DNA of 64,000 nt from Bdellovibrionota bacterium (GCA_965207455.1 CBDBMJ010000001.1:1568001-1632000); one strand, 5' to 3'; numbered from the stretch's first letter, positions 29,281-45,695 are shown. The notes: generated by a model not told the origin, from the letters alone. Numbers and translations are program-made.

Positions 29281-30153
29281 ATGCTCAAAACAAATCGTAC
29301 CCAAGGTTATATCCGTTCCTTTGACCACCACCGTTTATTCTATTCCTGTGAGGGGCCGCCCAACGCTCCCGTGCTTTTGTTTGTATATGGCTTAATGTGT
29401 TCCTCGATTAACTGGAAATACCAGATCGATTATTTTAAAAAAAAGTACCGGGTTTTGTACTTAGATTTTCGGGGACATAGTCGTTCGGACACTCCTGAGG
29501 ATTTCTCCCAGGTGACTCTGGAGAATCTTACCAAGGATCTGGCTACCCTGCATGATGAGTTGGACTTAGGTCCCGTACCCGTATTGGGTTATTCTTTTGG
29601 GGTAAACGTGGCCTTAGAGTTCTACCGTATGTTTCCCAAAAAGGCGTCTAGTTTAGTGCTATTGAGTGGAACCCCTAAGGATCCGTTTGAAACCATGTTT
29701 CACCATAATTTCCTACAGGTTGGTTTTGAGCAGTTATCTAGGTTTTATTATGCGGCTCCTGAGCTGTTTTCTAAAATTTGGAAATTGCAGTCCTTGAACC
29801 CACTTTGTAAGGAGTTTATTACCCGGGTGGGTTTCGACCGAAAATTGGCAAAAAAAGCTGATATTGCAGGTTATGTGGAGACAGCGCTGGCCACAGATCC
29901 GGGGGTATTTATGGAGTTATTAGCCAGCTTTGTTGATTACGATGCTTGTTGTTGGCTATCTGAAATCAAGATTCCTGTGTTAATTATGGGTGGGGAGCGG
30001 GATATGATCATTCCTCCCATCAATCAAAAAATACTCCACAAGCTTATTTCAGGCAGTGAGTTGGTTATTTGGCCCGGTGGAAGCCATAGTGTACAAATGG
30101 AGCAGAAAGAAAAAGTAAATGAAAGAATTGAGGATTTTGTAGGAGCTCTTTAG
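29281..30153 (+). CDS. Alpha/beta-fold hydrolase
   Basis: DFRGHSRS, nucleophile elbow GYSFG, GERD, GGSH. Confidence 0.88.
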   Translation: MLKTNRTQGYIRSFDHHRLFYSCEGPPNAPVLLFVYGLMCSSINWKYQIDYFKKKYRVLYLDFRGHSRSDTPEDFSQVTLENLTKDLATLHDELDLGPVPVLGYSFGVNVALEFYRMFPKKASSLVLLSGTPKDPFETMFHHNFLQVGFEQLSRFYYAAPELFSKIWKLQSLNPLCKEFITRVGFDRKLAKKADIAGYVETALATDPGVFMELLASFVDYDACCWLSEIKIPVLIMGGERDMIIPPINQKILHKLISGSELVIWPGGSHSVQMEQKEKVNERIEDFVGAL

Positions 30154-32520
30154 TTAATATAAGGGCTTTCCCTTGTCTTTTCCCTGCATAATAATCCCAT
30201 TTTCGATGAGACCCCCAATGAGTGTTGAATTGACATGCACAGTTTTGGAAGATAATTTTTTCTTCAGTACCCGATCCGTTCCGTATAAATATTTAAACAC
30301 GGCTTCAAAGGTTTCCTGTAGGATTTGAATATCGTCATATTTTTTATATTTTTTATCGGGCCAGTGGATAGCTAAAAAGGAGCCAAAACGATCCTGTAGA
30401 TCCAATGTATTTATATCTGCCGTATCGTAGCCGACTAAATGGAAGCAATCTTTTGTTAGGTGGGGTCCATGGTCTCCATTAATGATGATAATGGAATCGC
30501 GGTTACTTTCTAAAATTGTATTGATGTCATTGCGCATTTCAATATTTGCTTTTTTTAACCTGTGATGAAATCTTTCTACTTCATCGGGAAGGCAGGCTCC
30601 AGAGTTTTGGCTATGGTAGGGACCTGTGTGGGTGTGTAGGAATTTGGGTTGTGTTGTTTGTGCCCCCATAATTTTTCTTTTTTTCTGGATCCATTCTTCT
30701 TTGGTGTATTCCTTAAAGTCATCCATAATGTCGAATTTAAACCGTTGTGTTTGCAAGCCCCTGAGTAGTATTTCATGACCTTTTGTGGCTTTTTTGAATT
30801 CCGGGAAAAAATAATCATAGGCATTTTTTGCTTCCAGTACAAAATAATCTCCTAGAACAGCGTACGTTTTGTAGCCTTGTTTTTTTAAGGTGCTTACCGT
30901 TAAGCTATCTCCTGCCATAACTCTTCGATCCTTCACTGATGGCGATCTACTAATATCCAAAACTCCAGCCATTGATACCAATGTGCTCACGCCCAGTGAG
31001 TATGTTTTAGGGTAGATTACAAAATTATTGGATCGCAGGAAATCTTCTTGGTCTTTATTATTGATGCCATATTGAAGCATAATTTGATTCTGTACATAGG
31101 CATCGTAGGTTAATAAATAAATATCTGGTTTCTTTTTGAGTTCTCCTTTCGGTAGAAAGTAGTCGTATGATCGGACTGACGTTTCACTGATGCGGTGGGT
31201 GGCATTTTCCGACCTCATGTACGCATATATGCTATTGACGGAAAAATAAAGCATCGCCAAAAAGAATAGTAAGGATCGGAATTTCGAGCGCAAGTAGAAA
31301 AGAATGGCACTAATGGTGGCAAAAATAGCAAAAGGCAATAAGCGGTCCGGTTTCTCTACCCAATGGAAGGAATGGGAAAAAATGGGTAGGGAAGCATAAA
31401 GGTATAGTAGGGATATACTAAGGGGCACTAATAAGGACACACCCACATAGCGTTGTAAAAAAATGGGAATGATAACCGCAATGATCAAAGCTATGGATAG
31501 GGTAGCGATTAAAAATAGGAAAATTTCTGAAACTTTCAGTATATCTCTATTGTAGATAATATATTGTACTATGGGAGCCATGGGGATCAGTAATAAGGAA
31601 AGGTCTCGCCAACCATAGTTTTGATGGGGTAATTTTATCTCTTGGTTGAGTTTCTGGATTTCATTCCATTTATTTTTATACCGAGCCCATACATAAAAAA
31701 CAAATGCTAGGGCAATGGGTATGGCAAGAAATCTAACCGTGTCTTTTACTAGGCATTGACCAATGAGACCAATTCCCAAAAGATGTTGTATGGATAGTGA
31801 GTAGATAATGATGATGAGTAAGGGAACAACAAATTCTGCTCTCGCAATAAAGGCAGCATTTCTCCAGAGTGATTTGAGTTTTTCCCGTTCTTTTACGAAT
31901 GGGTATTGGCAGATATTTTTTACTAAAAAAATAAAATTATTAGTTGTCCAGTACAGGATTATGCCTGAGGGAGCGTTGTACAGGAGAAAGAAAAAAAGGA
32001 CATTCACAACGCTTGCTTGCAGCCACCGGTGAAAAGAAAAAAATGGCATAAGCAGGGAGGCAAGGAAGTTAATAGACAGCATGAGTGGAGGCAGGACATT
32101 GGTTCGTGGAACTAATTGGTCTGGTGCTCCCAGATCGGGAATAACAGAAAAACTCTGACCCTTGAGGCTTGGCAGGTCCGAGAACAGATAAAAAGCAAGA
32201 ATCAGAAAAGGTATTTGCACAAGCAGGGGAGTAATTCCTAAGATGGAAAAGATTGGATTATAGGAGTAGCGGTTAAACAGGGACTGTTTTCTTAGGAAGA
32301 GTGCCTTGCCTTTATACAGTGATTTTAAATGATCCAGCTGTGGTGAGAGAATTTCATTATAGATGCGTTCCCATGCAGAGAATTTCTCTGCATATCTCAC
32401 AAAAGGATAGGTGATTAGGCTTGTAAGAAACGAAAAGAGTAGAATGGAGAATCCATAACTGCCCGTAATATTTACGATGCCCAGGTATATATGTTCTGCG
32501 CCAGATAGTAGGAAATTCAT
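30154..32520 (-). CDS. Fusion: YidC/Oxa1-like domain + multi-TM region + alkaline-phosphatase/sulfatase (LtaS-like) domain
   Basis: N-terminal ~205 aa align by eye with the YidC core (YGFSI..., NP, PLLVQIP, DLGAPD, LPPLM, PSGIILYWTTNN). C-terminal KPDIYLLTYDAY, STLVSM, HTGPYH, IIINGDHG are alkaline-phosphatase superfamily motifs. Confidence 0.8.
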   Translation of the reverse strand: MNFLLSGAEHIYLGIVNITGSYGFSILLFSFLTSLITYPFVRYAEKFSAWERIYNEILSPQLDHLKSLYKGKALFLRKQSLFNRYSYNPIFSILGITPLLVQIPFLILAFYLFSDLPSLKGQSFSVIPDLGAPDQLVPRTNVLPPLMLSINFLASLLMPFFSFHRWLQASVVNVLFFFLLYNAPSGIILYWTTNNFIFLVKNICQYPFVKEREKLKSLWRNAAFIARAEFVVPLLIIIIYSLSIQHLLGIGLIGQCLVKDTVRFLAIPIALAFVFYVWARYKNKWNEIQKLNQEIKLPHQNYGWRDLSLLLIPMAPIVQYIIYNRDILKVSEIFLFLIATLSIALIIAVIIPIFLQRYVGVSLLVPLSISLLYLYASLPIFSHSFHWVEKPDRLLPFAIFATISAILFYLRSKFRSLLFFLAMLYFSVNSIYAYMRSENATHRISETSVRSYDYFLPKGELKKKPDIYLLTYDAYVQNQIMLQYGINNKDQEDFLRSNNFVIYPKTYSLGVSTLVSMAGVLDISRSPSVKDRRVMAGDSLTVSTLKKQGYKTYAVLGDYFVLEAKNAYDYFFPEFKKATKGHEILLRGLQTQRFKFDIMDDFKEYTKEEWIQKKRKIMGAQTTQPKFLHTHTGPYHSQNSGACLPDEVERFHHRLKKANIEMRNDINTILESNRDSIIIINGDHGPHLTKDCFHLVGYDTADINTLDLQDRFGSFLAIHWPDKKYKKYDDIQILQETFEAVFKYLYGTDRVLKKKLSSKTVHVNSTLIGGLIENGIIMQGKDKGKPLY

Positions 32521-33833
32521 TTGTCGCTCGCCATATTTTTAGATGGTTGTGCTAGGTAATCGGCAATATATTCTGAGGAATTGCCGAGATTTTTAATTGT
32601 TTTTTGTCGGAATTCTTTTAAATCTAGATTCGTATTTTGGAGAAGAGTTTTTTCCACAATTTTCGTTAACGTTTTTATTTCACTTTTTTTAATAAAGCTT
32701 CCTATCTCATGGGTGGCTTGTTCTCCCCATATTTCTGCCAAATCATCTGCCTCAAATAGGAATAAATTTTCCCTAGGTACTTCCAAAGAAATTACAGGTT
32801 TTTCGTATGTGAAGGCATAATCAAACCGTAATGAGGATGTGTCCGATATTAAAAGGCTGGATTTTTGCATAGAATCTCCGGGGGAGATTTCTCTATCCCA
32901 GGTAATATTTTTATATTTTTCTGTTTCCTTCTCACAAGTGCGAATAAAATCAGCCTCGATTTGATAGGAATAGGGATGGGCTCGAATAATAATTTCATAG
33001 CCTGCACGTGCCAGTTCTATTATGAAACCTAGGCCATAGGTCTGTAGGCATCCCTTCTCTCCCCATGAGGATCCCACAAGTAGGGTGTTTTTGTCATAAG
33101 CTAAATTATTTTTCCTGTTTTGATAGAGTTTATCTAAATAGGGTAAGCCCATGGTCACTAATTCTTTTCTTTTGAGGTTTCTTTTTTTCTCTATAGTACG
33201 AATGGCGTTGATCTGGAAATCGCCGACGAGGAGTACGCTATCATAGTGGTCCAAAGAGCCTTTCTTGTAGTAGGAAATATCTGCCACTGAGTGAAAAACA
33301 TGAACGAGGTTTTTTACTTTTGCAGGTCGGTCAAAAGGATAACTTTTTGTCCCAATATTCGGTGACGTGGCTAGCATTACGGGAGCGATGCTCTTGGATA
33401 GTCGTGAAAATCCGAGAATATTTTTTCTTAGCAGCTTGGAGTGCATAAAGGGGCTATCTATTGTTAAGGCTTCATCATGGACGTCGAAAGTAAAATACCG
33501 GAACGAGATTTTCTTTTTTATCAAAGCCGCAATAATGGGTTGGAATGTGTCCCTATATTCCCTACCTTCACCGAATATAATGGGCATGTCCGTATTATAA
33601 AAAATATTTTTACTCCTACCCATTAGATTATAGATAAAAGATTGAACGGAATAAATAAGAGCGCCAAAGATGGATAGTATGGCTGTAACTAGGGCGCTGC
33701 TACTGCCGGGGTCTAGGTAGCCGTATGCTCGGTTGGGAAGAATGAATAGGATGAGAATGGGCCAAGCCAGCAGCGATGCCCTGTGTAAAAACGCCATAGA
33801 TGAGAGAATAAAACAAAAAATATATAAGGTCAA
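32517..33833 (-). CDS. TagF/TarF-like CDP-alcohol:polymer phosphotransferase with signal-peptide-YLDPGS-TM leader
   Basis: VHVFHS, GLPYLD, LLVGSSWG, IRAHPY, LISDTSSLRFDYAF match the CDP-glycerol glycerophosphotransferase family. Stop overlaps the start of the YidC fusion (ATGA). Start may be ATG 33797. Confidence 0.8.
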   Translation of the reverse strand: MTLYIFCFILSSMAFLHRASLLAWPILILFILPNRAYGYLDPGSSSALVTAILSIFGALIYSVQSFIYNLMGRSKNIFYNTDMPIIFGEGREYRDTFQPIIAALIKKKISFRYFTFDVHDEALTIDSPFMHSKLLRKNILGFSRLSKSIAPVMLATSPNIGTKSYPFDRPAKVKNLVHVFHSVADISYYKKGSLDHYDSVLLVGDFQINAIRTIEKKRNLKRKELVTMGLPYLDKLYQNRKNNLAYDKNTLLVGSSWGEKGCLQTYGLGFIIELARAGYEIIIRAHPYSYQIEADFIRTCEKETEKYKNITWDREISPGDSMQKSSLLISDTSSLRFDYAFTYEKPVISLEVPRENLFLFEADDLAEIWGEQATHEIGSFIKKSEIKTLTKIVEKTLLQNTNLDLKEFRQKTIKNLGNSSEYIADYLAQPSKNMASDK

Positions 33834-33897
33834 CCTTGGGCCTCCATTGAAGAGTTAAGCGATGGGTGGTATGTATGGGGAATATTGAGGATAGTCC

Positions 33898-35172
33898 ATG
33901 AGTGATAAAACAGTTTATGTTGGTATGAGCGCAGATTTACTGCATCCAGGGCATATAAATATTTTAAAAATAGCTGCTTCCCATGGAAAGGTGACGGTTG
34001 GGCTTTTAACCGATAAGGCTATCGCTAGTTATAAGCGATTGCCCTATATGGAGTATGAGCAAAGAAAAGCAGTTGTGGAGAGTATTGGTGCTGTTCACCA
34101 AGTAATTCCTCAGTACAGCTTGGACTATACGGAGAACTTGGAGCGTGTTCGTCCCGATTATGTTGTTCATGGTGATGATTGGATGTCTGGCTCGCAACGT
34201 AGGGTTAGGGACAAGGTTATTGAGCAAATAAAACAATGGGGAGGGGAATTAATTGAACCCAAGTATACAGAGGGTATTAATTCAACGAACTTAAATATGA
34301 TCTTGCGTGAGATTGGCACAACACCAGACATACGAAGGAAAAGATTATATCGTTTAATTCAGTCGAAATCGCTTGTGCGAGTTATGGAGGCCCATAACGG
34401 TTTAAGCGCATTAATTGTGGAGAAAACTCGGGTTAAAAAAGAAAATGTGGATCAGGAATTTGATGCCGTATGGGAGAGCAGCCTCACGGATTCTGGATCC
34501 AAGGGGAAACCGGATATTGAGCTTGTGAGTCCCAACGATCGTCTCCAAACCGTGAACGAGATTTTTGAAGTGACCACAAAGCCAATGATATATGATGGTG
34601 GCACAGGTGGTTTTCCTGAGCATTTTGTATTTACGGTGCGTTCTTTGGAGAGGCTTGGAGTTTCCGCTGTTATTATTGGAGATACACTGGGTTTAGGCTC
34701 CACTTTGGGTGCGGAATATAAGCAAGCTCCCACCGAAGATTTTTGTTATAAAATTAGGATGGGTTGCAAGGCATCGATTACCAAGGATTTTATGATTATG
34801 GCAAGAATAGAGAATATTAAAAAAGATATGGGGAGTGCTCTGGATCGAGTCGAGGCTTATATTCATGCTGGAGCCAGTGCCATTATGGTACATTCAGGGG
34901 ATGCGTCTGAGGAAATGAAATTTGCAAAGGAATACCACAAAAAAGGTCATACAGCGCCGCTAGTGTGTATGCCATCCAATTATAGTCATGCTTATGAAGA
35001 GGATCTTATGAAAGCAGGTTTTCAAATTATCATCTATGGAAATCAATTATTGTGTTCCGCATATCCTGCAATGAAGAAGACGGCAGAGCTGATTTTAAAA
35101 AATAATCGTTCTTTGGAGTGTGATGATTTTTGTGCAGACACCAGCGACATTTTTAATTTAATTTCAAGATAG
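33898..35172 (+). CDS. Cytidylyltransferase (HxGH) fused to a phosphoenolpyruvate mutase domain with degenerate catalytic motifs
   Basis: ADLLHPGH and YTEGINST intact. PepM features [30 protein letters not shown] present, but D-x-D reads DGG and EDK-x5-NS reads [10 protein letters not shown]. Confidence 0.85.
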
Positions 35173-35182
35173 CGAGAAATAC

Positions 35183-36310
35183 ATGATAAAAGAATTTATT
35201 GGAAGGGGCAGTGTTCAGGCACTTTTTGATCATATACGATTGAAAAATCACTCTGATATTTTCATCGTCACGGGAAAGAAACCATTTCAAAACACAGGTA
35301 TAAAGGAACTGCTTACATCTTATTTTTCCACCACAAAGTGCCATTTCTTCACGGATTTTTCTGTGGACCCCAAATGGATGGACATGAAGAAAGGGATAGC
35401 TGCTTTTCAGCAAAGTAAGGCTGGAGCAATTATGGCTATCGGTGGAGGCAGTGTGATGGATATGGGCAAATTGATTAAGGCGGGTTCAGTTCATAAAGAA
35501 AATTTTATGGATATTGTGTTGAAGGGTAAGCCTTTGACGAATCCAGGAGTTCCCCTTTATATTGTACCCACAACGGCTGGATCGGGTAGTGAAGCTACGC
35601 ACTTTGCGGTTATCTATATAGAAGGAAAAAAATATTCTCTTGCCCACCCATTTATTTATGCAAATGCTGTTGCTGTTGATTCAGAAATGACAGCCTCAAT
35701 GCCTCTCGCGCTAAGAGCCCAAACCGCCTTTGATGCCCTATCTCAGGCCACAGAATCCTACTGGTCCTGTGGTGCCACAACAGACAGCAGAGTTCATGCA
35801 AAAAAAGCCATGCAACTTATTTTGCCCAATATGGTTGCAGCCGTTAATCAGCCAAACGATGAGAATAGAGGCGCGATGATGGAGGCTGCGCACCTAGCAG
35901 GGAAAGCGATTGATATATCCAAGACAACACTAGCCCATGCCCTGTCCTATCACTTAACTTCTGAATATTCCATTCCCCATGGTCATGCGGTAGCCCTTTG
36001 CCTTGGTAAATGTTTTACTCTTCATGGAAATGCCGAATCTCTTTCACCCCTATATACAAAAAATTCCTTCCAGAAAATCATGGAAGACATATATAAACTG
36101 TATGGTTGCAAAAACGCAAAAGAATGTGAAGAAAAATGGTATCGACTTATGGATGCTTGTCATCTAGAGCGTTCGTTATTGAAAATAGGTCTTAATACAA
36201 AAGAGCTCCAGGGGGTATTTTCTAAAAGTGCGAACCCGGAAAGGTTATCCAATAACCCGGTGAAAGTAATGCCGAGAGATATCCTAACGATGTATGATTT
36301 TTCTTATTAG
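35183..36310 (+). CDS. Iron-containing alcohol dehydrogenase, phosphonoacetaldehyde reductase-like (PhpC/FomC type)
   Basis: GGGSVMD, PTTAGSGSEATHFAV, DALSQATESYWS, AGKAIDISKTT.AHALSY..T....IPHGHAV; 10 nt after the PepM fusion. Confidence 0.82.
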   Translation: MIKEFIGRGSVQALFDHIRLKNHSDIFIVTGKKPFQNTGIKELLTSYFSTTKCHFFTDFSVDPKWMDMKKGIAAFQQSKAGAIMAIGGGSVMDMGKLIKAGSVHKENFMDIVLKGKPLTNPGVPLYIVPTTAGSGSEATHFAVIYIEGKKYSLAHPFIYANAVAVDSEMTASMPLALRAQTAFDALSQATESYWSCGATTDSRVHAKKAMQLILPNMVAAVNQPNDENRGAMMEAAHLAGKAIDISKTTLAHALSYHLTSEYSIPHGHAVALCLGKCFTLHGNAESLSPLYTKNSFQKIMEDIYKLYGCKNAKECEEKWYRLMDACHLERSLLKIGLNTKELQGVFSKSANPERLSNNPVKVMPRDILTMYDFSY

Positions 36311-37339
36311 GATGGGCAGTATATAATAAAGAAAAGCAATAAGCATGTAAGGAATAAAAAGAAATGTGCTGTCCTTATGGAGAATGCTCATCATTATTCT
36401 ATCCATGTAGCCAGGTGTATGTGTTTCTTCTAGTTTTATTTCCTCTGGTTTTATTTTCTTCGCAGCGCTGCAAATTTTTTTGTAAAATTCAAACCATTTA
36501 TTTAATGGAGCATGTTTTACTAAATGAAGGAAAAAGAATCGTATATAGAATAGATGGAGCAGGGTCATGTCTCTCTTGGAGGCTTTGATGCTGTTATAGG
36601 CTTCCTTGGAGAACTCATACGACGGGAAAACATCAAAAGATTGAAGAGAGCGTTTGCTTGTTATGCTGCCTGCATGCCTCCGGTAGTAAAGCAAGGTATG
36701 GTTTATTTTGCATATCTTATTAGAAACAAGAAACATTTTTTTTGCAGGTAGAATATCCTCGCTCATCCTTAGATCAGCAGGAGCTTGTATATTATATTGG
36801 TTCCAAACGGATTTTTTAAAAAGTTTCCAGCATATCGTTATAAAATGAAAAGAATGATAGAAGAAATCGTCAGAGAGGTCTTGGCGACAAAACACTGAGG
36901 GAAGTGTACTAAATTCTTGATTAAATTTTGTAGAGGCTGGGGCAGGCAGTGGCGTATAATTTTTCTGGTCTTTAAATTTTTTATAATCCCCTAAGACAAT
37001 ATCAGCATTATGTTCTACGGCTGCTTTATGGGCTTCTTCTAGGGCGTTGGGAGGAATCAAATCATCCGGGTCGAGGAAGAATAGGTATTCCCCTTGGGCG
37101 TGCGCCACTCCTGAGTTGCGAGCAGCACCCGTGCCCTGGTTTTCTTGGGTTAGGATTTTAATTCGAGGGTCAAGTGCTGCTGCCTCGCGAACAATTGCTT
37201 CAGACTGATCTGGAGATCCATCTATAACGAAGATGGCTTCCCAATTTTCCATGCTTTGATTTTGCACGGAGATCAGGCAATTCTTTAGCCAAGGTTCCAC
37301 ATTATACACGGGCAGGATGATAGAAATACTAGGACCCAT
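36284..37339 (-). CDS. Glycosyltransferase family 2
   Basis: ISIILPVYNVE, IDGSPD, NQGTGAARN, FLDPDD, SEDI, YYRR...SIT. Confidence 0.9.
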   Translation of the reverse strand: MGPSISIILPVYNVEPWLKNCLISVQNQSMENWEAIFVIDGSPDQSEAIVREAAALDPRIKILTQENQGTGAARNSGVAHAQGEYLFFLDPDDLIPPNALEEAHKAAVEHNADIVLGDYKKFKDQKNYTPLPAPASTKFNQEFSTLPSVFCRQDLSDDFFYHSFHFITICWKLFKKSVWNQYNIQAPADLRMSEDILPAKKMFLVSNKICKINHTLLYYRRHAGSITSKRSLQSFDVFPSYEFSKEAYNSIKASKRDMTLLHLFYIRFFFLHLVKHAPLNKWFEFYKKICSAAKKIKPEEIKLEETHTPGYMDRIMMSILHKDSTFLFIPYMLIAFLYYILPILIRKIIHR

Positions 37340-37395
37340 AGCTTGGAGCGTATCAGATTTTTTATTCGAACGGAACCAGAAACAGAGGCATATTG

Positions 37396-38484
37396 TTATT
37401 TATTGAACCATACCCGCAACTGCCTTACCCAAGATGGAGGAAGGTGATAGATGACTTGACTGCGAATCATACTATTGAATGTGAGAATCATGAGGTGTAG
37501 AAATACAATAAAAGATTTTCTTTTCCACTTATGCAAGTTGAGTCCATCTAATTTCTTTTCGGTTTTTGCGTACTCCATTTTTGCAATTAGTGGGGCGCAT
37601 TGGGTATAAAAGTGCCACCAGTCTTTGCGAGGGATTACGAACAGTATGGAGAACCTAAAGGAGCGAATAAAAAATTTCTCCATCTCAAGGCGGAGTGTTT
37701 TCCAGTGCGGTATGGATTGAAAAGATTCCATGGCCAGTGGATAGGCTCTTAAAATTTCAAGTGATTTTTTTGTTCGTTGGCCGGTATTACTATTGTATCT
37801 TCGGCGATACAAAACAGTTACAAATGGGCAAGAGACAATAATTTTACTGGAATGGAAGAATTTTTTCACTGGGATAATATCTTCTGCCATTAATAGGTTT
37901 TCAGGAACATGGCAATTCAGCTCTGCCCATAATTGTCTTCGGAACAATTTTCCCCAGCACGTTATGGTAAAACTACTTAGGATTAATTTTTCATATTTGT
38001 CTTTGAGCGTAGTCCAATCCAACGTTTCTGTTTCTTTGGGAAAAAAATTAAGAAAGGAATTTTGTAATGGATAGTTTTTATTTGCATGGGGTTTTTCTTT
38101 TTTATCTATAAAGGTATGGAAATCTCCAATCACCATATCAGCTCCGTGTGACTGGGCTGCTTGGTATAGATTTTCTAAGGCGTTATTGGCAAGCACATCA
38201 TCGGAGTCTAAAAAGCACAGGAACTCTCCCCCAGCATGTTGGCATCCCGTATTGCGAGCAGCTCCTAGACCCATATTTTTTGTATGCTCTAGGATTGTAT
38301 ATCTCTGGTCTGCCCCAGCGTAGGACTCCATGATTTCTTTAGAGGCATCTTGAGAGCAGTCATTTATCAGAATGGCTTCCCAGTCCTGAAAGCTTTGATT
38401 TTGCACGGAGCTTAGGCAATCATTTAGCCAAGGTTCCACATTAAATACGGGAATGATCAGGCTAATTTTGCAGGTTGATGGCAT
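37396..38484 (-). CDS. Glycosyltransferase family 2 (paralog of neighbour)
   Basis: ISLIIPVFNVE, NDCSQD, NMGLGAARN, FLDSDD, AEDI. Start at ATG 38484 after AAGGA. Confidence 0.9.
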   Translation of the reverse strand: MPSTCKISLIIPVFNVEPWLNDCLSSVQNQSFQDWEAILINDCSQDASKEIMESYAGADQRYTILEHTKNMGLGAARNTGCQHAGGEFLCFLDSDDVLANNALENLYQAAQSHGADMVIGDFHTFIDKKEKPHANKNYPLQNSFLNFFPKETETLDWTTLKDKYEKLILSSFTITCWGKLFRRQLWAELNCHVPENLLMAEDIIPVKKFFHSSKIIVSCPFVTVLYRRRYNSNTGQRTKKSLEILRAYPLAMESFQSIPHWKTLRLEMEKFFIRSFRFSILFVIPRKDWWHFYTQCAPLIAKMEYAKTEKKLDGLNLHKWKRKSFIVFLHLMILTFNSMIRSQVIYHLPPSWVRQLRVWFNK

Positions 38485-38536
38485 GGTATGTTCCTTGCTT
38501 ACTATAGTGTATGGGCGTAATCCAGTCAAGTGCCTG

Positions 38537-41410
38537 TTACAGGTCAAATTTTGACTTGTTCGGAATGAAAATTGTCTTTACTCGTTTATCCATAAATACT
38601 TTATCTTTGGTCAGTAACTCCATAAAAGAGTCTTCCTCTAGGTGGAGTGTGTAGTTCACATGATAGTTTATATTTTTTATTTTCACATAACGTTTCACAA
38701 GTGGATACAATTCTCTATTAAAAGACAACGCCCGCAGGTTTGCTGTTTTCATTTTCTGGGATATTTTTGCGCCCCATTTTTGAGCCTCGGATTTAGAGAG
38801 TTTCTTTTCCATTGGCAGAAGATGGCGGGACACAGACCAGCCTTTTTTTTGTATTTTTTTGAGAATGGGCATAGTTAATGAGAATACAAGGATGGATTTA
38901 TTTTTTATTTTAAATTTTTTATCAATGCCATCCAATTGCTTTAGGATTTTTTTGTAATTATGTTCATTTAAATTTTTCAATTCCAAAACCAACCGCTGTA
39001 TTTTTTTGTGTGAAATTTTGCTGAGATAATTTTCTAGCTTCAAACCTAGGGAATTAGCATTTTCTCCAAGATGAAGATTTCCATCCTTTGCAAGCCAAAG
39101 GTTTAGCCCAAAAGATCGGAAGCCATTATTCCATGCTTCTTTTAGCTTTCCCAGTGAGTTTACTTTACTTAAAAAAACTCGGTTGGATTGCTTGGATTGT
39201 ACAAGGTCCATCGTATTTTTCCTTGTCCAGTAAATAGCATTATCACTATCTGTATATTTTTTCTTTCTACGCAAGACGTAGGCTTCACTTGGTTTTAGCT
39301 CATAGTTTGAGGAAGATAAATCGTATTTAGAGTGATAGCGTTTTGTTTTTATATTGAAAATTCCGATTAAAGTATCGTAGAGAAAACCGTTGGAATACAG
39401 CGATTGGGTGTTATTTAATAATGCTTGGAATTTATTTGGGTATCGTTTTTTGTATTTGGGGGAAAACCACGCAAGCATGGGGATTTCTGTCATCTCGTAG
39501 GTGAAACTTCCAGAATTATGCCCCAGATTATTAAAAATATCCTCACTGTGATCGGAAATATAGAGAAAACCAGTAACACCACCTTTCTTTTGTACTATTT
39601 TTAAAAGAGAGCTAACCACATAATCATTATAGAGTACGCTGTTATCATAGCAATTTATATTCTCCCAGTTGAATTTTTTTGAATCGCTTGAAATTGTTGA
39701 ACCAAAATTTCCTGGCTTTAAGCTGCCCGTAAATAGAGGAAACTCATTTTTCGGATATCTTGCACAATAATGTGAATGACTGCCCATTAGGTGCACAAAA
39801 ATTATGCGGCTCTTCTTGGTTTTCTCCATTAACACATTTTCCACTTCTTTAATCATTCCTCCATCATATTTATCCGCTCGTACTCTTTTCCCGATTGTTG
39901 AGTTTATACTCACCACATTTTTTGCCTCTAAGCCAATGGCAGCAGCCATATTATCCCAAGGACCCATTAAATTCTGATTGGAAATCCAATGGGTTTCTGC
40001 ATGGGATTTATTTATTATATTTATGATAGAGGGTGACTGGTGATATTTTTTTTCGTTTAATTGGTTTGCCTCTGTTAATGCCAAGCTAAGAGTTGCACCT
40101 GTATGGGTGTGGCTGGAATAAGCATTTTGGAATACAATTAAATTTTCCATTTTTGACAAATTCGGTGTTGTTTCCCGTGCGTAACCATAAAGACCCATAT
40201 GCTGTTTATTTAATGATTCGCCAATTACCACAATATAGATTTCATCTTCCTCAGTCTTGCTTGCAGTAATGTCAACTCCCTTTGTTCGTGATGATTGGAA
40301 TTTTCTAAATAATATTAGTTGACGGGTATACCGGTAAGAACTCATTATAATGAGTTCTGGAATTTTAGGGTGCTTGAGTTGAGCCAGACCTATGGTAAAT
40401 GTGATAAGTATTAGAACTATAAGGTAAGAAGCCTTTATTTCCACACCCTTCATTTTCTTTTGTTTCCATAGCAGCGCTATAAAAATAGCTGATATAAGGC
40501 TTGCAATAAGTCCCCATTGGAGAGGAATAAAACTAAGAGCATGCTCCCATACCTCCTTATAATTAGATTGGAGTAATGCAACCACAGTATGCCTATCAAT
40601 GCTTGCCCCATAATTTATGGTGTATGCTATGAACAATGCCGGCACAACGTATGCTGCAAAAAATACGATATGAAGGCAAGCTGAAAGAACTTTAAATCTC
40701 AAGGATTGTGAGGATTTTTGCTGAAAAAGAATAAATAAAAATGTAAAGCCCATTGCTAGGGAGGTATAAATAATTGCCGTTCGAAGATCTTGCGCTCCCC
40801 AGTTGATTTTTTCTGCCAGTAACGATAATAGAAATATAAAATAGGAATTTATAAAAATTACGGCATAGCCCTTAGTAAATAAAAAAATGAAAAGTATGAA
40901 CCATAAAAATACTGGTATACAAGAATATAGAAAGTGCCATCTATCTTTGATTTTTATTCGAAGATCTGCTCGATGGAAGAAAGAATTACCATGCCCAGTT
41001 GCAATTATCTCAATTTCATCACCTGTGCGAACATCTAAGAATAACTGACTCTTTGCCGTTACTAGGACTTTTTGAATTATTTTCCCATTCTTCTTAATAC
41101 GAAAATCTATATTTCCAGTACTTGAGGCTGGTGCAATGGAAAAATTGAATCGAATATTTGCTGGCTGGAGAAATACAATACGTCCAGTGGCAGAATTTTT
41201 TGTACTTATTTGGATAAAAAAATAGCTATCTGTAACTTTTTTAAATAAAGCTTCTTGGCTTGTGCTTACGGTGTTAAATTTGTAGTAATCTTTATTTATA
41301 TCCTGATAGCCATCTCCCATGGGAGCTAGAATGAAGTACGTCGCAAATATACTGATAATCCCTAAGAATAGAAGAATTTTTTTTCTTTTATTGTCCAGCA
41401 AGTGTTTCAT
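38537..41410 (-). CDS. Phosphoethanolamine-transferase family (EptA/CptA-like) with extra N- and C-terminal domains
   Basis: TM block, then VIGES, YGYARETTP, HT (Thr nucleophile), VHLMGSH, YDNSVLYND, SDHSE, GH; ~215-aa C-terminal extension. Confidence 0.85.
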   Translation of the reverse strand: MKHLLDNKRKKILLFLGIISIFATYFILAPMGDGYQDINKDYYKFNTVSTSQEALFKKVTDSYFFIQISTKNSATGRIVFLQPANIRFNFSIAPASSTGNIDFRIKKNGKIIQKVLVTAKSQLFLDVRTGDEIEIIATGHGNSFFHRADLRIKIKDRWHFLYSCIPVFLWFILFIFLFTKGYAVIFINSYFIFLLSLLAEKINWGAQDLRTAIIYTSLAMGFTFLFILFQQKSSQSLRFKVLSACLHIVFFAAYVVPALFIAYTINYGASIDRHTVVALLQSNYKEVWEHALSFIPLQWGLIASLISAIFIALLWKQKKMKGVEIKASYLIVLILITFTIGLAQLKHPKIPELIIMSSYRYTRQLILFRKFQSSRTKGVDITASKTEEDEIYIVVIGESLNKQHMGLYGYARETTPNLSKMENLIVFQNAYSSHTHTGATLSLALTEANQLNEKKYHQSPSIINIINKSHAETHWISNQNLMGPWDNMAAAIGLEAKNVVSINSTIGKRVRADKYDGGMIKEVENVLMEKTKKSRIIFVHLMGSHSHYCARYPKNEFPLFTGSLKPGNFGSTISSDSKKFNWENINCYDNSVLYNDYVVSSLLKIVQKKGGVTGFLYISDHSEDIFNNLGHNSGSFTYEMTEIPMLAWFSPKYKKRYPNKFQALLNNTQSLYSNGFLYDTLIGIFNIKTKRYHSKYDLSSSNYELKPSEAYVLRRKKKYTDSDNAIYWTRKNTMDLVQSKQSNRVFLSKVNSLGKLKEAWNNGFRSFGLNLWLAKDGNLHLGENANSLGLKLENYLSKISHKKIQRLVLELKNLNEHNYKKILKQLDGIDKKFKIKNKSILVFSLTMPILKKIQKKGWSVSRHLLPMEKKLSKSEAQKWGAKISQKMKTANLRALSFNRELYPLVKRYVKIKNINYHVNYTLHLEEDSFMELLTKDKVFMDKRVKTIFIPNKSKFDL

Positions 41411-41419
41411 ATCTGAATT

Positions 41420-42649
41420 CTATTTGATTTTTACCTCCACACTATTTGCCACAATGGACCGAGAGTGTATCTGAGGGGGAGTTTCCATCACAAAAGCTAT
41501 TTGTATATGGGATATATCCAGAAGCACTTCTCGCTGGGAATGTGTACTAATGTATAAACCTGCCATATAGTCCCCAAGATTTAATTGCATGGCACACATC
41601 CGCACATTTATTTCCAGTATACCTTTATTGAATTCAAATATGGAGTTGGTATGCAATCCTGGAATATGGAGAATGGGGTCTATTTCATTATTATGAATCC
41701 ATGTGTCCACAAAACAAGGACCATAGTCCTTATCAGCCTTCAATTTAAAATGAAAATTCCAGTCATCTCCAGATTTTACGTTTCCGCATGATTTGACCTC
41801 TAAAATTTCTATTCCATCCTCTTGGTGCTTTATTTTAATGTCCTCAAATTCTCTCCCCATGGAATCCCTTGCGTACCTATCTGCCGTGGATTCAATATCG
41901 CCTAGGTGGACCAATTTCCCGTGGTTTAATAATAAACCTTTATTACAGAGTTGTTTCGTGAGGTTAATATTGTGGGAGACAAATAGGATCGTCTTTCCTT
42001 CACTTTTTGAGGCCGCGTTCATTTTTTGTATGCATTTTTGTTGGAACTCCACATCCCCAACTGCGAGAGCTTCGTCTATAATCATAATATCACTCTCCAA
42101 ATGGGCTGCAACGGAAAAGCCCAGGCGTGCACCCATTCCAGAAGAGTAGCGCTTTAGGGGGACTTCTAGGAATGTTTCCACGCCGGCAAAGTCCACAATT
42201 TCATCGAAGCGTCGCCCTATTTCTCGTTTGTTCATGCCCAGTATGGCGCCGTTGAGGTAGATGTTTTCCCGCCCCGTTAATTCGGGATGGAATCCTGTGC
42301 CCACCTCTAAGAGGCTAGCAATACGCCCCCGTATGGAAAGGCGTCCCGTGGTGGGTTCTGTGATTTGACTAAGGATTTTCAGTAGCGTGGATTTCCCTGC
42401 TCCATTACTACCAATAATACCCAGCTTGTCGCCTTTTTCTACTTCCAGGTTAATCCCTTGGAGGGCCCATATTTTTTTTTGGTTGCTTTTTTGGTTTTGA
42501 AAGAACCGCCAAGGGCGCAGAGATTTTTTCGCTCCTCGAACTAGGGACTCCCGGAGGGTGTCATACCCGGAGTAGCGGTTTTTTTTACTTTCTTGGATTT
42601 GGTAGCACTTGCTAACATCCTCTATTTTAATGGCTAGATCATCACGCAT
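41420..42649 (-). CDS. wzt: Polysaccharide ABC exporter ATP-binding subunit Wzt with C-terminal domain
   Basis: GSNGAGKSTLLK, LEVGTGFHPELTGRENI, YSSGM, DEALAVGD, VSH; ~130-aa C-terminal beta domain. ATG at 42649 directly follows the wzm stop. Confidence 0.9.
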   Translation of the reverse strand: MRDDLAIKIEDVSKCYQIQESKKNRYSGYDTLRESLVRGAKKSLRPWRFFQNQKSNQKKIWALQGINLEVEKGDKLGIIGSNGAGKSTLLKILSQITEPTTGRLSIRGRIASLLEVGTGFHPELTGRENIYLNGAILGMNKREIGRRFDEIVDFAGVETFLEVPLKRYSSGMGARLGFSVAAHLESDIMIIDEALAVGDVEFQQKCIQKMNAASKSEGKTILFVSHNINLTKQLCNKGLLLNHGKLVHLGDIESTADRYARDSMGREFEDIKIKHQEDGIEILEVKSCGNVKSGDDWNFHFKLKADKDYGPCFVDTWIHNNEIDPILHIPGLHTNSIFEFNKGILEINVRMCAMQLNLGDYMAGLYISTHSQREVLLDISHIQIAFVMETPPQIHSRSIVANSVEVKIK

Positions 42650-42650
42650 A

Positions 42651-43478
42651 CTATATTTTGTCCGCAAACTCGCGCTCCATTTTGAAAAATACCTTAAAGC
42701 CAACAAAAATCGCTATGAGGGTTAAAGCAATAGACATAAAAAAACCTGGTAAATAAAAATCTACGTTTTCTCCTAAAATACTCCATCGGTACCCATCAAT
42801 TACTCCCACCATTGGGTTTAGGGAATACCAAAAACGCCACTGATCGGGAATAGTGGCACTGGAAAAACCCACTGGGGAAATATACAGACCGAACTGAACA
42901 ATAAATGGTATTACATAGCGGAAATCTCGATAGAAAACATTGAGGGTGGAAATAATGAGAGCAATGCCAATGGTGCTCATTATGCCAAGAAGCATAAAGC
43001 AGGGAAGGAGGAGGATTTTCCAGTCGGGTACGAATTGATAGTAGACCATAAGACCAAATAAAATAAACAGAGAGATGAAGGTGTCCACAAGAGCAGTCAT
43101 GATAGTACTCATGGGTATGATGAGGCGGGGGAAATAGATTTTTGAAATGAGTTGGGTATTGTTAATCAAGCTGTCACTACTGAGTTGAATAGCAGAGGCA
43201 AAGAATTGCCAGGGAAGCAGTCCCGCAAACACGAGAAGTGCGTAGGGGGTGTCTCCTTCTGTGGGCAGTTTTGCCAGCTTTCCAAAAATTAGGGTGAACA
43301 CCACCATGGTAAGAAAGGGACGAAGCACAGACCATAGTATACCAAGGAGGGTTTGTTTGTAACGAATGAGAATATCTCGCCAAGCTAGGACAAAGAATAA
43401 TTCACGGAACGCGTATAAGGATTGCCAGTAATTCCTTGTTTTTTTATTGGCGACGATTTCTAGGACTGTATCACTCAT
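42651..43478 (-). CDS. wzm: Polysaccharide ABC exporter permease Wzm
   Basis: RDILIRYKQTLLG.LW..L.P, GLLPWQFF, LISKIYFPR, RDFRY, LNPM. Confidence 0.93.
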   Translation of the reverse strand: MSDTVLEIVANKKTRNYWQSLYAFRELFFVLAWRDILIRYKQTLLGILWSVLRPFLTMVVFTLIFGKLAKLPTEGDTPYALLVFAGLLPWQFFASAIQLSSDSLINNTQLISKIYFPRLIIPMSTIMTALVDTFISLFILFGLMVYYQFVPDWKILLLPCFMLLGIMSTIGIALIISTLNVFYRDFRYVIPFIVQFGLYISPVGFSSATIPDQWRFWYSLNPMVGVIDGYRWSILGENVDFYLPGFFMSIALTLIAIFVGFKVFFKMEREFADKI

Positions 43479-43530
43479 CTGTATAGGTAATAGCTATTTT
43501 ATATGAGGAAAAATGTCAAACAAAATATCT

Positions 43531-44682: not shown

Positions 44683-44863
44683 AGATTCTCCTATTTGTTA
44701 AATTTCATTGATTACATGGGTAGTGTCTCCTATGTGCGGAGTTTCTAGCAATTCTTTATTTTAATTTTTTAATTTTTTTTCTTTTGAAATTTTTACAATA
44801 AAGGTAGCTGCGTAAATATATTCTTACGTTCCCTAACATTAATGCGCAACAATCTGGAGTTTT

Positions 44864-45172: not shown

Positions 45173-45209
45173 AATGTGGGCTCCTTTTACAATAGCTATT
45201 GTTATTCAG

Positions 45210-45470: not shown

Positions 45471-45638
45471 AGCTTGGGTATAGATGATTTTTACTTAGAT
45501 TGGAAGTGAAAACGATGGTGAGGTAGGCATTTTTGCCGCAAAGGCCCAGCGGTCTGGGTGATTGCATGATGGGTTTGCTGTACGCTCAAATCAGCTATAC
45601 TATTTTGATACCAATAGTCTGATGTTGCAAGCCGATAC

Positions 45639-45673
45639 AAAAAAAGCCCTCTTTTAAAAGAAAGCTTTTTTTT
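45639..45673 (-). terminator. Intrinsic terminator after the 45696-46457 gene
   Basis: Minus strand reads GCTTTCTTTTAAAAGAGGGC (hairpin with G-U pairs) followed by T7. Confidence 0.6.
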
Positions 45674-45695
45674 AGTATAAATTTATTCAATTCAG

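Follow-up and report, generated by a model that had tools for sequence, protein, structure and literature searches.

What is a YidC-type insertase fold doing when it is fused to a putative surface transferase, coupled to a TagF-like gene and placed back to back with genes for the activation of a phosphonate? This arrangement lies in a 64,000-nucleotide stretch of DNA from a Bdellovibrionota bacterium, which was analysed as a whole and is here called the window. In our judgement it is evenly balanced whether the locus is what it appears to be, namely a donor cassette joined to a three-part membrane module (a TagF-like protein, a YidC-like domain, and a transmembrane plus alkaline-phosphatase-superfamily part, TM+AP) that places 2-hydroxyethylphosphonate (HEP) on an envelope molecule. 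No description of such a module was found in the literature searched.

Table 1. Genes and domains of the locus, in window coordinates
Feature	Position	Strand	Length	Assignment
YidC-AP fusion gene, P0001	30154-32520	-	788 aa	
YidC-like domain, P0001 residues 1-206	31903..32520	-		five helices and cytoplasmic hairpin
Polytopic block, P0001 residues 207-445	31186..31902	-		seven predicted helices (DSSP of AF2 model)
Extracytoplasmic alkaline-phosphatase-superfamily (AP) domain, P0001 residues 446-788 and stop	30154..31185	-		fold match
TagF-like gene, P0002	32517-33833	-	438 aa	Pfam Glyphos_transf PF04464
Cytidylyltransferase-PepM (CT-PepM) fusion gene, P0003	33898-35172	+	424 aa	Pfam PF01467 and PF13714
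Fe-ADH gene, P0004	35183-36310	+	375 aa	Pfam Fe-ADH and ADH_Fe_C
GT2 gene	36284-37339	-		Pfam PF00535, E 1e-35
GT2 gene	37396-38547	-		Pfam PF00535, E 5e-38
CptA/EptA-like phosphoethanolamine-transferase-family gene	38537-41410	-	957 aa	Pfam Sulfatase, 141 bits
Wzt-like ATPase gene, ABC glycan exporter	41420-42706	-		Pfam ABC_tran
Wzm-like permease gene, ABC glycan exporter	42651-43478	-		Pfam ABC2_membrane

The original prediction described two divergent, tightly coupled gene pairs beside a Wzm/Wzt glycan locus, and this layout was found in every respect: the open reading frames lie where it placed them with their domains (4/4), the neighbours are as described, and the TagF-like and fusion genes share an ATGA stop/start overlap that can be read directly (...gac aaa tga / atg aat ttc). 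The exporter lies 5 kb beyond the four-gene set, past both GT2 genes and the gene for the 957-aa protein, and its two components score under the cut-offs of the NCBIfam TagH/Wzt and Wzm models. The two GT2 enzymes are the likely makers of a glycan acceptor. The 957-aa protein, which matches the NCBIfam CptA models at E 4.8e-65 and under their cut-offs, is a second outward-facing AP-superfamily enzyme of the locus.

A fusion protein whose N-terminal domain did not model as YidC would have spoken against the prediction, and the domain does model as YidC. Residues 22-202 match Pfam 60KD_IMP/YidC (PF02096; E 1.3e-17, 64.7 bits against a cut-off of 35), E. coli YidC chains match by phmmer at E 4.8e-8, and the model superimposes on 6al2_A (VIA; Z 18.7, rmsd 2.8 A, 195 aligned) and 3wo6 (VIA; Z 18.4, rmsd 2.4 A, 194 aligned; Foldseek TM 0.76), with the five-helix core and cytoplasmic hairpin of the YidC/Oxa1/SpoIIIJ insertases complete. 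It differs from those insertases in three ways. The NCBIfam YidC model TIGR03592 reaches 60.5 bits, under its cut-off of 84.3; the domain is a second copy, fused or coupled to enzymes, in a genome that also encodes a housekeeping YidC with Lys in the groove; and the groove Lys/Arg of the first core helix is replaced by Ser. This last change extends to the family, where the 51 members having a residue in that column carry mostly Ser (21), Asn (13) or Thr (9), otherwise Ala (3), Phe (3), Val (1) or Tyr (1), and never Lys or Arg (0/51). An in vitro study reports that purified E. coli YidC scrambles glycerophospholipids (PMC11047089).

The partner encoded by the overlapping gene is recognisable mainly by its fold. 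P0002 matches PF04464 at E 7.6e-7 (28.9 bits against a cut-off of 22.1) over profile positions 147-291 of 367 only, and gave no NCBIfam match and no PDB match by sequence. With its AF2 model (pLDDT 83.1) as the Foldseek query, TagF chains take all of the first ten places (3l7i to 3l7m; E about 1e-11 to 1e-10, best 3l7i at 1.7e-11), followed by TarL 8va1 and the capsule polymerases 8qoy and 8a0c, with generic GT-B enzymes close behind. Taken together with the fold of the fusion protein, these matches uphold the predicted pairing of a TagF-like enzyme with a YidC-like/LtaS-like fusion. Two histidines, H181 and H286 (the latter in R-x-H-P), are invariant in 15/15 sequences of alignment A3 and are candidate counterparts of the catalytic histidines of TagF, H444 and H584. 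From TagF, TarL and the TagF-like capsule polymerases, whose fold, CMP-linked donor and action at the cytoplasmic face it would share, P0002 differs in its identity of about 15%, in its obligate association, as partner or as fusion, with a YidC-like domain and an outward-facing AP domain, in a donor that is probably a phosphonate, and in its transmembrane N-terminus. The true start is probably the ATG at 33794, from which a leader ending in AYG, the motif Y-L-D-P-G-S-x-S (also written Y-x-D-P-G-x-G-S; here YLDPGSSS, between two hydrophobic segments), one helix and a cytoplasmic GT-B-like catalytic domain follow in order.

It is this N-terminus that sustains the foremost rival, in which the YidC-like domain serves in assembly or docking, a reading that is live although we consider it unlikely. 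The domain would be a dedicated insertase or permanent dock for the Y-x-D-P-G-x-G-S segment or for the polytopic AP enzyme and would only hold the complex together, the TagF-like enzyme modifying a lipid-linked glycan in the cytoplasm before export by Wzm/Wzt and the AP domain performing a separate step outside. The classical YidC-only substrates include M13 procoat, with a cleavable leader, an acidic stretch and one helix, and Pf3 coat. Some TagF-like forms resemble the former, with a cleavable-looking leader ending in A-x-A, a short acidic stretch and one helix; most of the 80 TagF-like loci recall the latter, the motif beginning 3-9 residues past the first Met. All sequences of A3 have the motif unchanged, and 76 of the 80 loci have it or, judged by eye, a close variant. 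TagF-family enzymes, moreover, are known to work in the cytoplasm, where the final polymer is their substrate.

The modelling of the two membrane proteins together, as proposed in the original prediction, also favours contact, if weakly, and counts for the main reading as well. Residues 1-445 of the fusion protein and the TagF-like protein gave an ipSAE of 0.50 (runs 0.49, 0.50 and 0.52, sharing at least 47% of contacts, with partner pLDDT at least 73) against 0.00 for the best control, a result classed as weak support. Of 157 solved complexes 116 attain the mark, as do 2 of 215 mismatched pairs; scores no higher than 0.60 account for only 18 of the 157 and for both of those mismatched pairs. 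These counts hold only roughly because our own alignments were used. Against docking, the genome already has its housekeeping YidC, the family-wide loss of Lys/Arg from the groove is an argument against its acting on acidic tails as an ordinary insertase would, and an insertase fused in cis to its own client would be unusual. Such a role would also leave a strictly conserved, catalytically intact AP domain outside the cell without a donor.

The YidC-like, TagF-like and AP parts are linked, in an arrangement that is more than chance. Among 78 loci with the TM+AP family, a YidC-like domain is nearby in 13 and a TagF-like gene in the same 13, the other 65 having neither, and a YidC-like domain accompanies the TagF-like family in 72 of its 80 loci, most of the eight misses being short or cut contigs. 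The co-occurrence anticipated by the prediction was thus seen at 13/13 and 72/80 loci. The module is widespread in bacteria and takes several forms: a YidC-AP fusion in the window, in gammaproteobacteria and in loci L057 and L078; a TagF-AP fusion (about 1020-1040 aa) alongside a free-standing YidC-like gene of 232 aa in L060, L081, L082 (twice) and L058; and all parts as separate genes in L073. The best 150 representatives include 42 YidC fusions and 2 TagF fusions. Linked members do not form one clade of the AP-domain tree, on which they need 6 changes, and none of the 30 relatives searched carries the fusion (0/30), which leaves the case without support from conservation in the lineage.

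Homologous fusions are also linked to nucleotide-activation genes, a connection whose absence would have counted against the prediction. The HEP cassette (CT-PepM, phosphonopyruvate decarboxylase or Ppd, and Fe-ADH) adjoins the module in 6 loci of 5 phyla, and also in L084, L086 and L110; in L052 the five-gene cassette stands alone, without glycan genes. Other modules adjoin AEP, LicC/choline-kinase-type or other donor cassettes, which are swappable, and of the 15 loci that come closest to the CT-PepM gene, only 2 have a TagF-like gene and 1 a YidC-like domain. The link between donor and module is loose: the association with phosphonates stands, but not as an exclusive one.

Turning to the outer half of the fusion protein, the original prediction placed the TagF-like domain inside and the AP domain outside, and the model bears this out: loop hydropathy and K/R counts put the K/R-rich loops inside, and with five plus seven helices the AP domain is predicted to lie outside and the TagF-like domain inside. 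The last five of the seven helices are common to relatives lacking YidC and correspond in alignment to the membrane domain of PbgA/EptA, and full-length PbgA 6xlp_A aligns with residues 298-786 (VIA). Pfam Sulfatase (PF00884) falls just under its cut-off at 532-690 (E 6.9e-5, 22.7 bits against 25). The top structural matches of the AP domain (VIA, Foldseek) are PbgA/YejM chains (Z 20.4-20.7; periplasmic domain 5i5h by VIA, Z 20.7, rmsd 3.5, 269 aligned), followed in VIA by EptC 6a82_A (Z 20.0), LtaP (Z 18.7) and LtaS (Z 18.3). The putative metal ligands are D473, H631, H636, D683 and H684 and the putative nucleophile is T513, roles that we assume from motif likeness and from a weak hhalign register with the window's own CptA-like protein (probability 12%, E 0.0024). 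Among the best 150 representatives, D/E473, S/T513 and H636 are kept in 150/150, D683 in 149/150, H684 in 148/150 and H631 in 147/150.

P0001 shares its build with EptA/MCR-1, EptC, LtaS/LtaP and PbgA/YejM, an AP fold outside the membrane that comes after a helical membrane domain (Z 18-21), as well as conservation of the Ser/Thr nucleophile and of the acidic, His and Asp-His ligand columns; BcsG, OpgB, GacH and PptA are also membrane-anchored proteins of this superfamily. It differs from them in its identity of 10-14%, its sub-threshold Sulfatase score and its seven rather than five helices, set after a YidC fold. Known members, moreover, draw head groups from bulk phospholipids, without a dedicated CMP-donor transferase.

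Two of these relatives suggest further readings. LtaS builds polyglycerolphosphate from phosphatidylglycerol, and by analogy the TagF-like enzyme could make a HEP-headed lipid that is flipped and polymerised by the AP domain to poly(hydroxyethylphosphonate). The LtaS and LtaP matches, the free hydroxyl of HEP and the L052 cassette without glycan genes are consistent with this, but we think it improbable, as the module also stands beside AEP and choline-type donors, which could not polymerise so, EptC and PbgA are at least equal to LtaS as matches of the AP domain, and we know of no polymer of this type. PbgA/YejM, for its part, is described as an LPS-binding protein and not a transferase, and its place at the head of the structural matches would suit a non-catalytic, sensing or lipid-binding AP domain in a regulatory fusion. 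This is less probable again, given the near-invariant ligand and nucleophile columns and the operon coupling of P0001 to a donor pathway and a transferase.

The donor cassette itself agrees with the predicted cytidylyltransferase-PepM fusion and Fe-ADH. P0003 consists of a cytidylyltransferase (about residues 1-140; CTP_transf_like PF01467 at 11-113) and a PEP mutase (about 148-424; PEP_mutase PF13714 at 152-399), both over their Pfam cut-offs. The first is 64% identical (86/135 residues, E 3.5e-54) to PDB 5x3d_A, a 160-aa entry named PEP phosphomutase that we take to be the HEP cytidylyltransferase domain of Fom1; the second matches 5unc and 1m1b, and the PEP mutase model TIGR02320 is by far the best-scoring NCBIfam model on P0003 at 289.7 bits, under its cut-off of 319.55. 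Among NCBIfam models, P0004 scores highest with one associated with phosphonates, TIGR03405 (Phn_Fe-ADH), at 156.2 bits far under the cut-off of 423.7. Relatives of P0004 are accompanied by CT-PepM and Ppd in L052, L057, L059, L060, L073 and L082, and this gene context makes P0004 a candidate phosphonoacetaldehyde reductase, forming HEP. As presented in Rice et al. 2019 (PMC6697681), the Fom1 cytidylyltransferase makes CMP-HEP and exemplifies PF01467. The identity to 5x3d and the CT-PepM/Ppd/Fe-ADH cassettes beside the module elsewhere support CMP-HEP as the likely donor. The HEP pathway was recovered only in part, with PepM and reductase families at the locus but no Ppd in the window; the sole genomic Ppd match (C1:684659-685768, 395.9 bits, over cut-off) lies about 0.9 Mb away, inside a second, AEP-type phosphonate cluster, and Ppd must be supplied in trans.

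The pair recalls Fom1/FomC of fosfomycin biosynthesis in Streptomyces wedmorensis, in PF01467 lying N-terminal to PEP mutase and in the Fe-ADH partner, and also PntC-type phosphonyl tailoring, where CMP activation of a phosphonate precedes transfer; the same account terms the transferases after CMP-phosphonates enigmatic (Rice et al. 2019, PMC6697681). In contrast to Fom1/FomC, the locus lacks later fosfomycin genes and Ppd, and the activated phosphonate is apparently passed to membrane transferases. That the genes make a soluble fosfomycin-like natural product is hardly credible: the Fom1-like and FomC-like pair does match the first steps of that pathway, but the annotated neighbours include no homologue of a methyltransferase, epoxidase or hydrolase, and the partners are membrane enzymes within a glycan export locus.

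Returning to the placement of HEP on the envelope, we propose a model in four steps. The PEP mutase domain would form phosphonopyruvate, Ppd encoded elsewhere phosphonoacetaldehyde, the Fe-ADH would reduce this to HEP and the Fom1-like domain would yield CMP-HEP. The TagF-like enzyme, anchored to the inner membrane face through its Y-x-D-P-G-x-G-S helix, would then free CMP by moving the HEP-phosphonyl group onto a hydroxyl group of an intermediate bound to the membrane, for which a lipid, for instance diacylglycerol or a glycolipid, is the simplest candidate. It is plausible that the polar head of this intermediate crosses the membrane through the hydrophilic groove of the YidC-like domain, which without its positive charge would be a dedicated scramblase and not an insertase. 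Finally, the EptA/LtaS-type domain would take the head group on Thr513 and pass it to the final acceptor, probably a glycan made by the adjacent GT2 enzymes and exported by Wzm/Wzt. Counting against this mechanism are the Sulfatase, TIGR03592, TIGR02320 and TIGR03405 scores under their cut-offs, the lead of PbgA/YejM among structural matches to the AP domain, the loose donor link, the 65 TM+AP loci with neither partner nearby, and the absence here of a Ppd gene that is present in 6 other HEP-type loci. Furthermore, since TagF enzymes normally act directly on a lipid-linked polymer in the cytoplasm, the last two steps would be unnecessary if P0002 did likewise. The original reading is supported in part: the domains, their linkage, the topology and CMP-HEP as the likely donor are supported, the carrier, the passage through the groove and the final acceptor stand as proposals, and the tie to phosphonates is not exclusive.

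The proposed logic has parallels. In the GtrA/GtrB/Gtr-type (GtrA/B/V), ArnC/ArnEF/ArnT and CsbB/GtcA/YfhO systems of three-component extracytoplasmic decoration, the lipid is loaded by a transferase in the cytoplasm, flipped by a small membrane protein and then used by a second transferase, outside, to decorate the polymer, and the use of phospholipid head groups by EptA and LtaS is similar in kind. Those three-component systems move sugars on undecaprenyl phosphate with flippases of GtrA or SMR type, whereas here a phospho(no) head group activated with CMP would be the cargo, and a protein of insertase fold is the candidate flippase. If this is true, a re-purposed copy of YidC would serve in a machine that probably attaches a C-P compound to the cell surface.

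The segment at 30154–36310 consists of two divergent gene pairs, identified from the ORFs of the window and set out with their neighbors in the table below. The original prediction had described these pairs, their domains, an adjoining Wzm/Wzt locus and an ATGA overlap between the genes for the TagF-like protein (P0002) and for the YidC-like fusion protein (P0001), and every one of these items proved to be right when checked by ORF calling and Pfam. The TagF-like ORF probably begins later than its listed TTG: 13 codons on, an ATG opens a leader, MAFLHR..., that resembles the leaders of relatives, and its use would give a divergent intergenic region of 103 bases instead of 64. A promoter and terminator scan of 29800–36700 returned fewer sites than were found in shuffled sequence, and nothing usable.

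Locations and annotations of the features discussed (window coordinates unless a contig or locus is named; C1, contig of the source genome; L, fetched gene locus; AP, alkaline-phosphatase superfamily; Ppd, phosphonopyruvate decarboxylase)
Feature	Location	Strand	Length	Annotation
Two divergent gene pairs	30154–36310			P0001/P0002 and P0003/P0004
P0001, YidC-like/AP fusion		minus	788 aa	60KD_IMP (YidC family), 64.7 against cut-off 35, residues 22–202; weak Sulfatase match, 22.7 against cut-off 25, residues 532–690
P0002, TagF-like		minus	438 aa	Glyphos_transf (TagF family), 28.9 bits against cut-off 22.1
P0002, listed TTG start (probably too early) to downstream ATG	33794–33833	minus		
P0003, cytidylyltransferase–PEP mutase		plus	424 aa	CTP_transf_like and PEP_mutase
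P0004		plus	375 aa	Fe-ADH
Two GT2 glycosyltransferases		minus		beyond the two gene pairs
CptA/EptA-like protein		minus	957 aa	beyond the two gene pairs
Wzt/Wzm ABC exporter pair		minus		beyond the two gene pairs
AEP-type cluster	C1:679900–688100 (L004:4897–13066)			LicC-like nucleotidyltransferase, CDP-alcohol phosphatidyltransferase, LysE, PepM–NTP_transf_3 fusion, Ppd, class-V aminotransferase, MipA
Ppd match	C1:684659–685768			395.9 bits, above cut-off
YidC–AP fusions, Treponema putidum ATCC 700334	L104:3539–17069		895, 904, 901, 953 aa	four genes in one row with two TagF-like genes
Gammaproteobacterial loci	L005:12438–16809; L007:3190–7633			YidC–AP fusions, different donor cassette
Conserved neighbor family	L011:7288–8667		~460 aa	no Pfam match
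DUF285/leucine-rich-repeat paralogues	52824–59517		599, 467, 540, 364 aa	four, clustered
Endonuclease/exonuclease/phosphatase-family proteins	43531–44682; L004:136–1260; L023:10507–12483			

The N-terminal part of P0001 is a diverged second copy of YidC. In an AlphaFold2 model built from 21 family sequences (mean pLDDT 82.7), residues 1–206 superpose on Bacillus halodurans YidC (3wo6; Z 18.4, rmsd 2.4 Å, 194 residues aligned) and on Escherichia coli YidC (6al2_A; Z 18.7, rmsd 2.8, 195 aligned). Only two proteins of the source genome match PF02096, P0001 and the housekeeping YidC, a separate 570-aa ORF adjoining mnmE. A charged groove is a defining feature of an insertase-type YidC; the groove lysine in the first core helix of the housekeeping protein aligns with a serine in P0001, and none of the 51 family members with a residue in that column has lysine or arginine there (S 21, N 13, T 9, A 3, F 3, V 1, Y 1). 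The P0001 family thus keeps the YidC fold without the groove charge of insertase-type YidC.

Residues 451–787 of the model resemble the periplasmic domain of YejM/PbgA (Z 20.7, rmsd 3.5, 269 aligned), together with those of EptC (Z 20.0), LtaP (Z 18.7) and LtaS (Z 18.3). Seven predicted helices separate the YidC-like and AP domains and, as full-length PbgA spans model residues 298–786, the last five of them resemble the membrane domain of that group. Given that the YidC core terminates in the cytoplasm, and that the loops at 206–229 and 276–303 contain 7 and 8 Lys/Arg residues respectively, the helix count and charge distribution suggest that the AP domain should face outwards, as it does in EptA and LtaS. 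Among the 150 best family representatives, hardly any variation is seen in the columns that look like the metal ligands and nucleophile of the AP superfamily: D/E473, S/T513 and H636 are kept in all 150, D683 in 149, H684 in 148 and H631 in 147. Such conservation speaks for catalytic activity and against a PbgA-like binding role, and makes a PbgA-like sensor the less likely reading of P0001. An hhalign comparison of the P0001 family with the window's CptA-like protein was weak (probability 12%), and was used solely as a pointer to the motif register.

The partner protein, P0002, is TagF-like in fold. Its model (pLDDT 83.1) finds TagF chains in all ten of its best Foldseek matches (3l7i, E 1.7e-11), followed by TarL and TagF-like capsule polymerases, with generic GT-B enzymes close behind. 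The N-terminus is unusual, consisting of a hydrophobic leader ending in AYG, the sequence YLDPGSSS and a single helix. Y39, P42 and S46 never vary across a family alignment of 15 sequences, and D41, G43 and G45 hardly do; a strict pattern for this motif is matched in 70 of 80 TagF-like loci, with near variants recognized by eye in six more. Some relatives have a leader ending in A-x-A, and most start 3–9 residues ahead of the motif. Because Lys/Arg residues follow the N-terminal helix, the motif should lie at the outer face of the membrane and the catalytic domain on the cytoplasmic side, together with the CMP-linked donors.

Evidence that these three parts form a module comes from comparison of loci. 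A single-sequence query with P0001 returned no related locus; a family-alignment query returned 113 relatives in species-representative genomes, from which 78 loci were kept. By tblastn with the window proteins, 13 of the 78 have a YidC-like domain close to the AP gene, and these 13 are also the ones with a TagF-like gene. The parts are joined in different ways. Pfam identifies YidC–AP fusions in the window, in Alteromonadaceae, Colwelliaceae and Vibrio (L005–L008), in Neptunomonas and Shewanellaceae, and in one Spirochaetaceae and one Puniceicoccaceae MAG, while two Clostridiales MAGs have TagF–AP fusions of ~1020–1040 aa, each following a free YidC-like gene of 232 aa. A similar arrangement is found in Erysipelothrix inopinata, with a 171-aa YidC-like ORF, and in a second Spirochaetaceae MAG, where the YidC-like ORF is cut; in a Sumerlaeota MAG each of the three parts is a gene of its own. 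P0001 has 366 matching clusters in a representative library at E values up to 1e-30, and our own HMMs for the YidC-like and TagF-like parts, applied to the best 150 of these, identified 42 YidC fusions, 2 TagF fusions and 106 with neither.

The reciprocal search with the TagF-like family gave at least 580 confirmed relatives and 80 kept loci (37 from Spirochaetota, 29 from Bacillota, the remainder spread over nine further named phyla and one unassigned). A YidC-like domain is present in 72 of these, and most of the eight misses are short or cut contigs. The P0001-type AP domain was detected by tblastn in only 7 of the 80; among 14 YidC-bearing ORFs (786–953 aa) from these loci, ten also have weak Sulfatase or Phosphodiest matches in Pfam, and the wider family therefore combines YidC with a diverged AP domain. 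The cultivable oral spirochaete Treponema putidum holds two TagF-like genes in the same row as its four YidC–AP fusion genes.

The gene fusions make binding between P0001 and P0002 likely beforehand. Complex prediction with P0001 residues 1–445 and P0002 gave an ipSAE of 0.50 (runs 0.49, 0.50 and 0.52; best control 0.00), with at least 47% of contacts shared between runs and partner pLDDT of at least 73, and was rated as weak support. Of 157 solved complexes, 116 attained the mark applied, as did 2 of 215 mismatched pairs; passing scores of 0.60 or below were confined to 18 of the 157 and both passing mismatches. These benchmark counts hold only roughly, as our own alignments were used.

The divergent pair points to 2-hydroxyethylphosphonate (HEP) as the donor group in this organism. 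The first 139 residues of P0003 match PDB 5x3d_A (E 3.5e-54, 86/135 identical), an entry named as a 160-aa PEP phosphomutase and which we take to be the cytidylyltransferase domain of Fom1. The Fom1 cytidylyltransferase is described as converting CTP and HEP to CMP-HEP, and 23.6% of PEP mutase proteins as carrying a PF01467 fusion (Rice et al. 2019, PMC6697681); PhpC-type Fe-ADHs are described as reducing phosphonoacetaldehyde to HEP, with the HEP type making up 8.5% of ppm neighborhoods (Li and Horsman 2022, PMC8942020); and the phosphonoglycans of two actinomycetes are said to contain HEP (Yu et al. 2014, cited in PMC13576164). For P0004 the top NCBIfam model is a phosphonate Fe-ADH with a score far under the cut-off, and we make this assignment by context. 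No Ppd was found within the window. The only match in the genome sits outside it, inside a canonical AEP-type cluster, from which the HEP pathway of the window would therefore have to borrow its Ppd.

The link between module and donor is not exclusive. An HEP cassette (cytidylyltransferase–PepM, Ppd and Fe-ADH) accompanies 6 of the 13 YidC/TagF-positive loci, and a variant set one more (L078). The cultivable Neptunomonas qingdaonensis CGMCC 1.10971 (L052) carries an HEP-type module as a cassette of five genes. In the four marine gammaproteobacterial loci (L005–L008) the phosphonate set gives way to genes for a PPDK_N/PEP-utilizers protein (~1000 aa), a Peptidase_C26/GATase protein and a LicC-like nucleotidyltransferase, and in the Erysipelothrix locus LicD is accompanied by a protein that matches choline-kinase/APH in Pfam and is LicC-like by tblastn. 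By tblastn, 20 of the 80 TagF-like loci carry PepM and 18 carry Ppd; an AEP-type aminotransferase turns up in 13 and Fe-ADH in 5, and 32 have a LicC-like gene. Conversely, the 15 loci closest to P0003 include a TagF-like gene in only two, a YidC-like domain in one, and an HEP cassette without the module in five.

Nor is the triad a property of the whole family to which the AP enzyme belongs. By tblastn, YidC-like and TagF-like genes are both missing nearby in 65 of the 78 loci, mostly Chloroflexota, and among 43 neighboring proteins from a subset of these, Pfam found no Glyphos_transf; 11 of the neighbors belong to a conserved ~460-aa family that has no Pfam match. This family (counterparts in L010, L016, L036–L039, L041, L046, L056, L066, L071 and L077) accompanies YidC-less relatives of ~580 aa, mostly in Anaerolineales; its members are mostly 43–82% identical to one another (L066, 31–36%), the C-terminal half resembles a class-I SAM methyltransferase by eye, and it may represent an alternative partnership for this outside enzyme. 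We reject a single origin of the YidC/TagF-linked AP proteins, as a careful AP-domain tree requires six changes (bootstrap 5–95% range 6–6). The linked members are clustered on this tree (0/500 shuffles as low), which is midpoint-rooted and carries no claim as to gain versus loss.

Within its own lineage the module looks acquired, since none of 30 relatives searched has a full-length P0001 orthologue (matches there are housekeeping YidC only) and G+C falls across the locus, from 0.46–0.50 in the housekeeping stretch at 22–30 kb to 0.36–0.40 over most of 30000–46000, with two bins at 0.42–0.43. We claim no donor lineage; the glycan and phosphonate locus may likewise be acquired. The window also contains four clustered DUF285/leucine-rich-repeat paralogues, and endonuclease/exonuclease/phosphatase-family proteins recur beside such envelope loci.

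The best-supported reading of the locus has four steps. CMP-HEP would be made in the cytoplasm by the identified enzyme families, with Ppd supplied in trans. The TagF-like enzyme, whose fold and side of the membrane are shown above, would then place the HEP-phosphonyl group on a membrane-bound acceptor, and the resulting intermediate would arrive at the outer leaflet. The YidC-like groove is the obvious candidate route for this passage, as this part is always present and has lost the charge linked to insertion of proteins, and as in vitro scrambling of glycerophospholipids is reported for E. coli YidC, Get1 and Oxa1 in purified form (Li et al. 2024, PMC11047089). Finally, by analogy with EptA and LtaS, the AP domain would pass the head group via Thr513 to an envelope acceptor, here probably the glycan exported by Wzm/Wzt. 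The main rival to this four-step reading confines the YidC-like domain to building the complex, by inserting or docking the N-terminus of the TagF-like protein, which resembles Pf3 or procoat. A poly-HEP synthase is less likely, as is a soluble natural product.

Extending the four-step reading, we tentatively entertain, as a doubtful but possible proposal, that the YidC/Oxa1 fold without its groove charge is a dedicated scramblase that carries a lipid-linked, CMP-derived phospho(no) head group across the bilayer, physically coupled to its TagF-like maker and EptA/LtaS-type consumer. The module would then be a self-contained, donor-swappable machine that makes, flips and attaches, distributed through Spirochaetota, Bacillota and the nine other named phyla of the 80 TagF-like loci, and the invariant Y-x-D-P-G-x-G-S N-terminus of the TagF-like protein would contribute to a hand-over site at the outward opening of the groove.

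The component families are known, and the overall purpose, decoration of the envelope with an activated phospho head group, is of a known kind. What is new is the module architecture and the use of an insertase fold; the full-text literature searched, subscription journals and supplements aside, contains no description of a YidC-like domain that is linked with TagF-like and LtaS/EptA-like enzymes. A conduit role, if proven, would be categorically new. Surface phosphonate and phosphocholine-type decorations influence immune recognition and how well cells withstand phosphatases and cationic peptides. Rice et al. (2019, PMC6697681) call tailoring after C–P bond formation enigmatic, and for the open step of delivering CMP-activated phosphonates to the surface the module offers a concrete candidate, one accessible to genetic and biochemical tests in Treponema, gut and rumen Clostridia, Akkermansia, Desulfovibrio and marine gammaproteobacteria. 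Were the YidC-like domain to move a lipid head group and not a protein, it would be the first natural insertase fold specialized for lipid transport, and would bear on the unsolved problem of which factors flip lipids across bacterial membranes.
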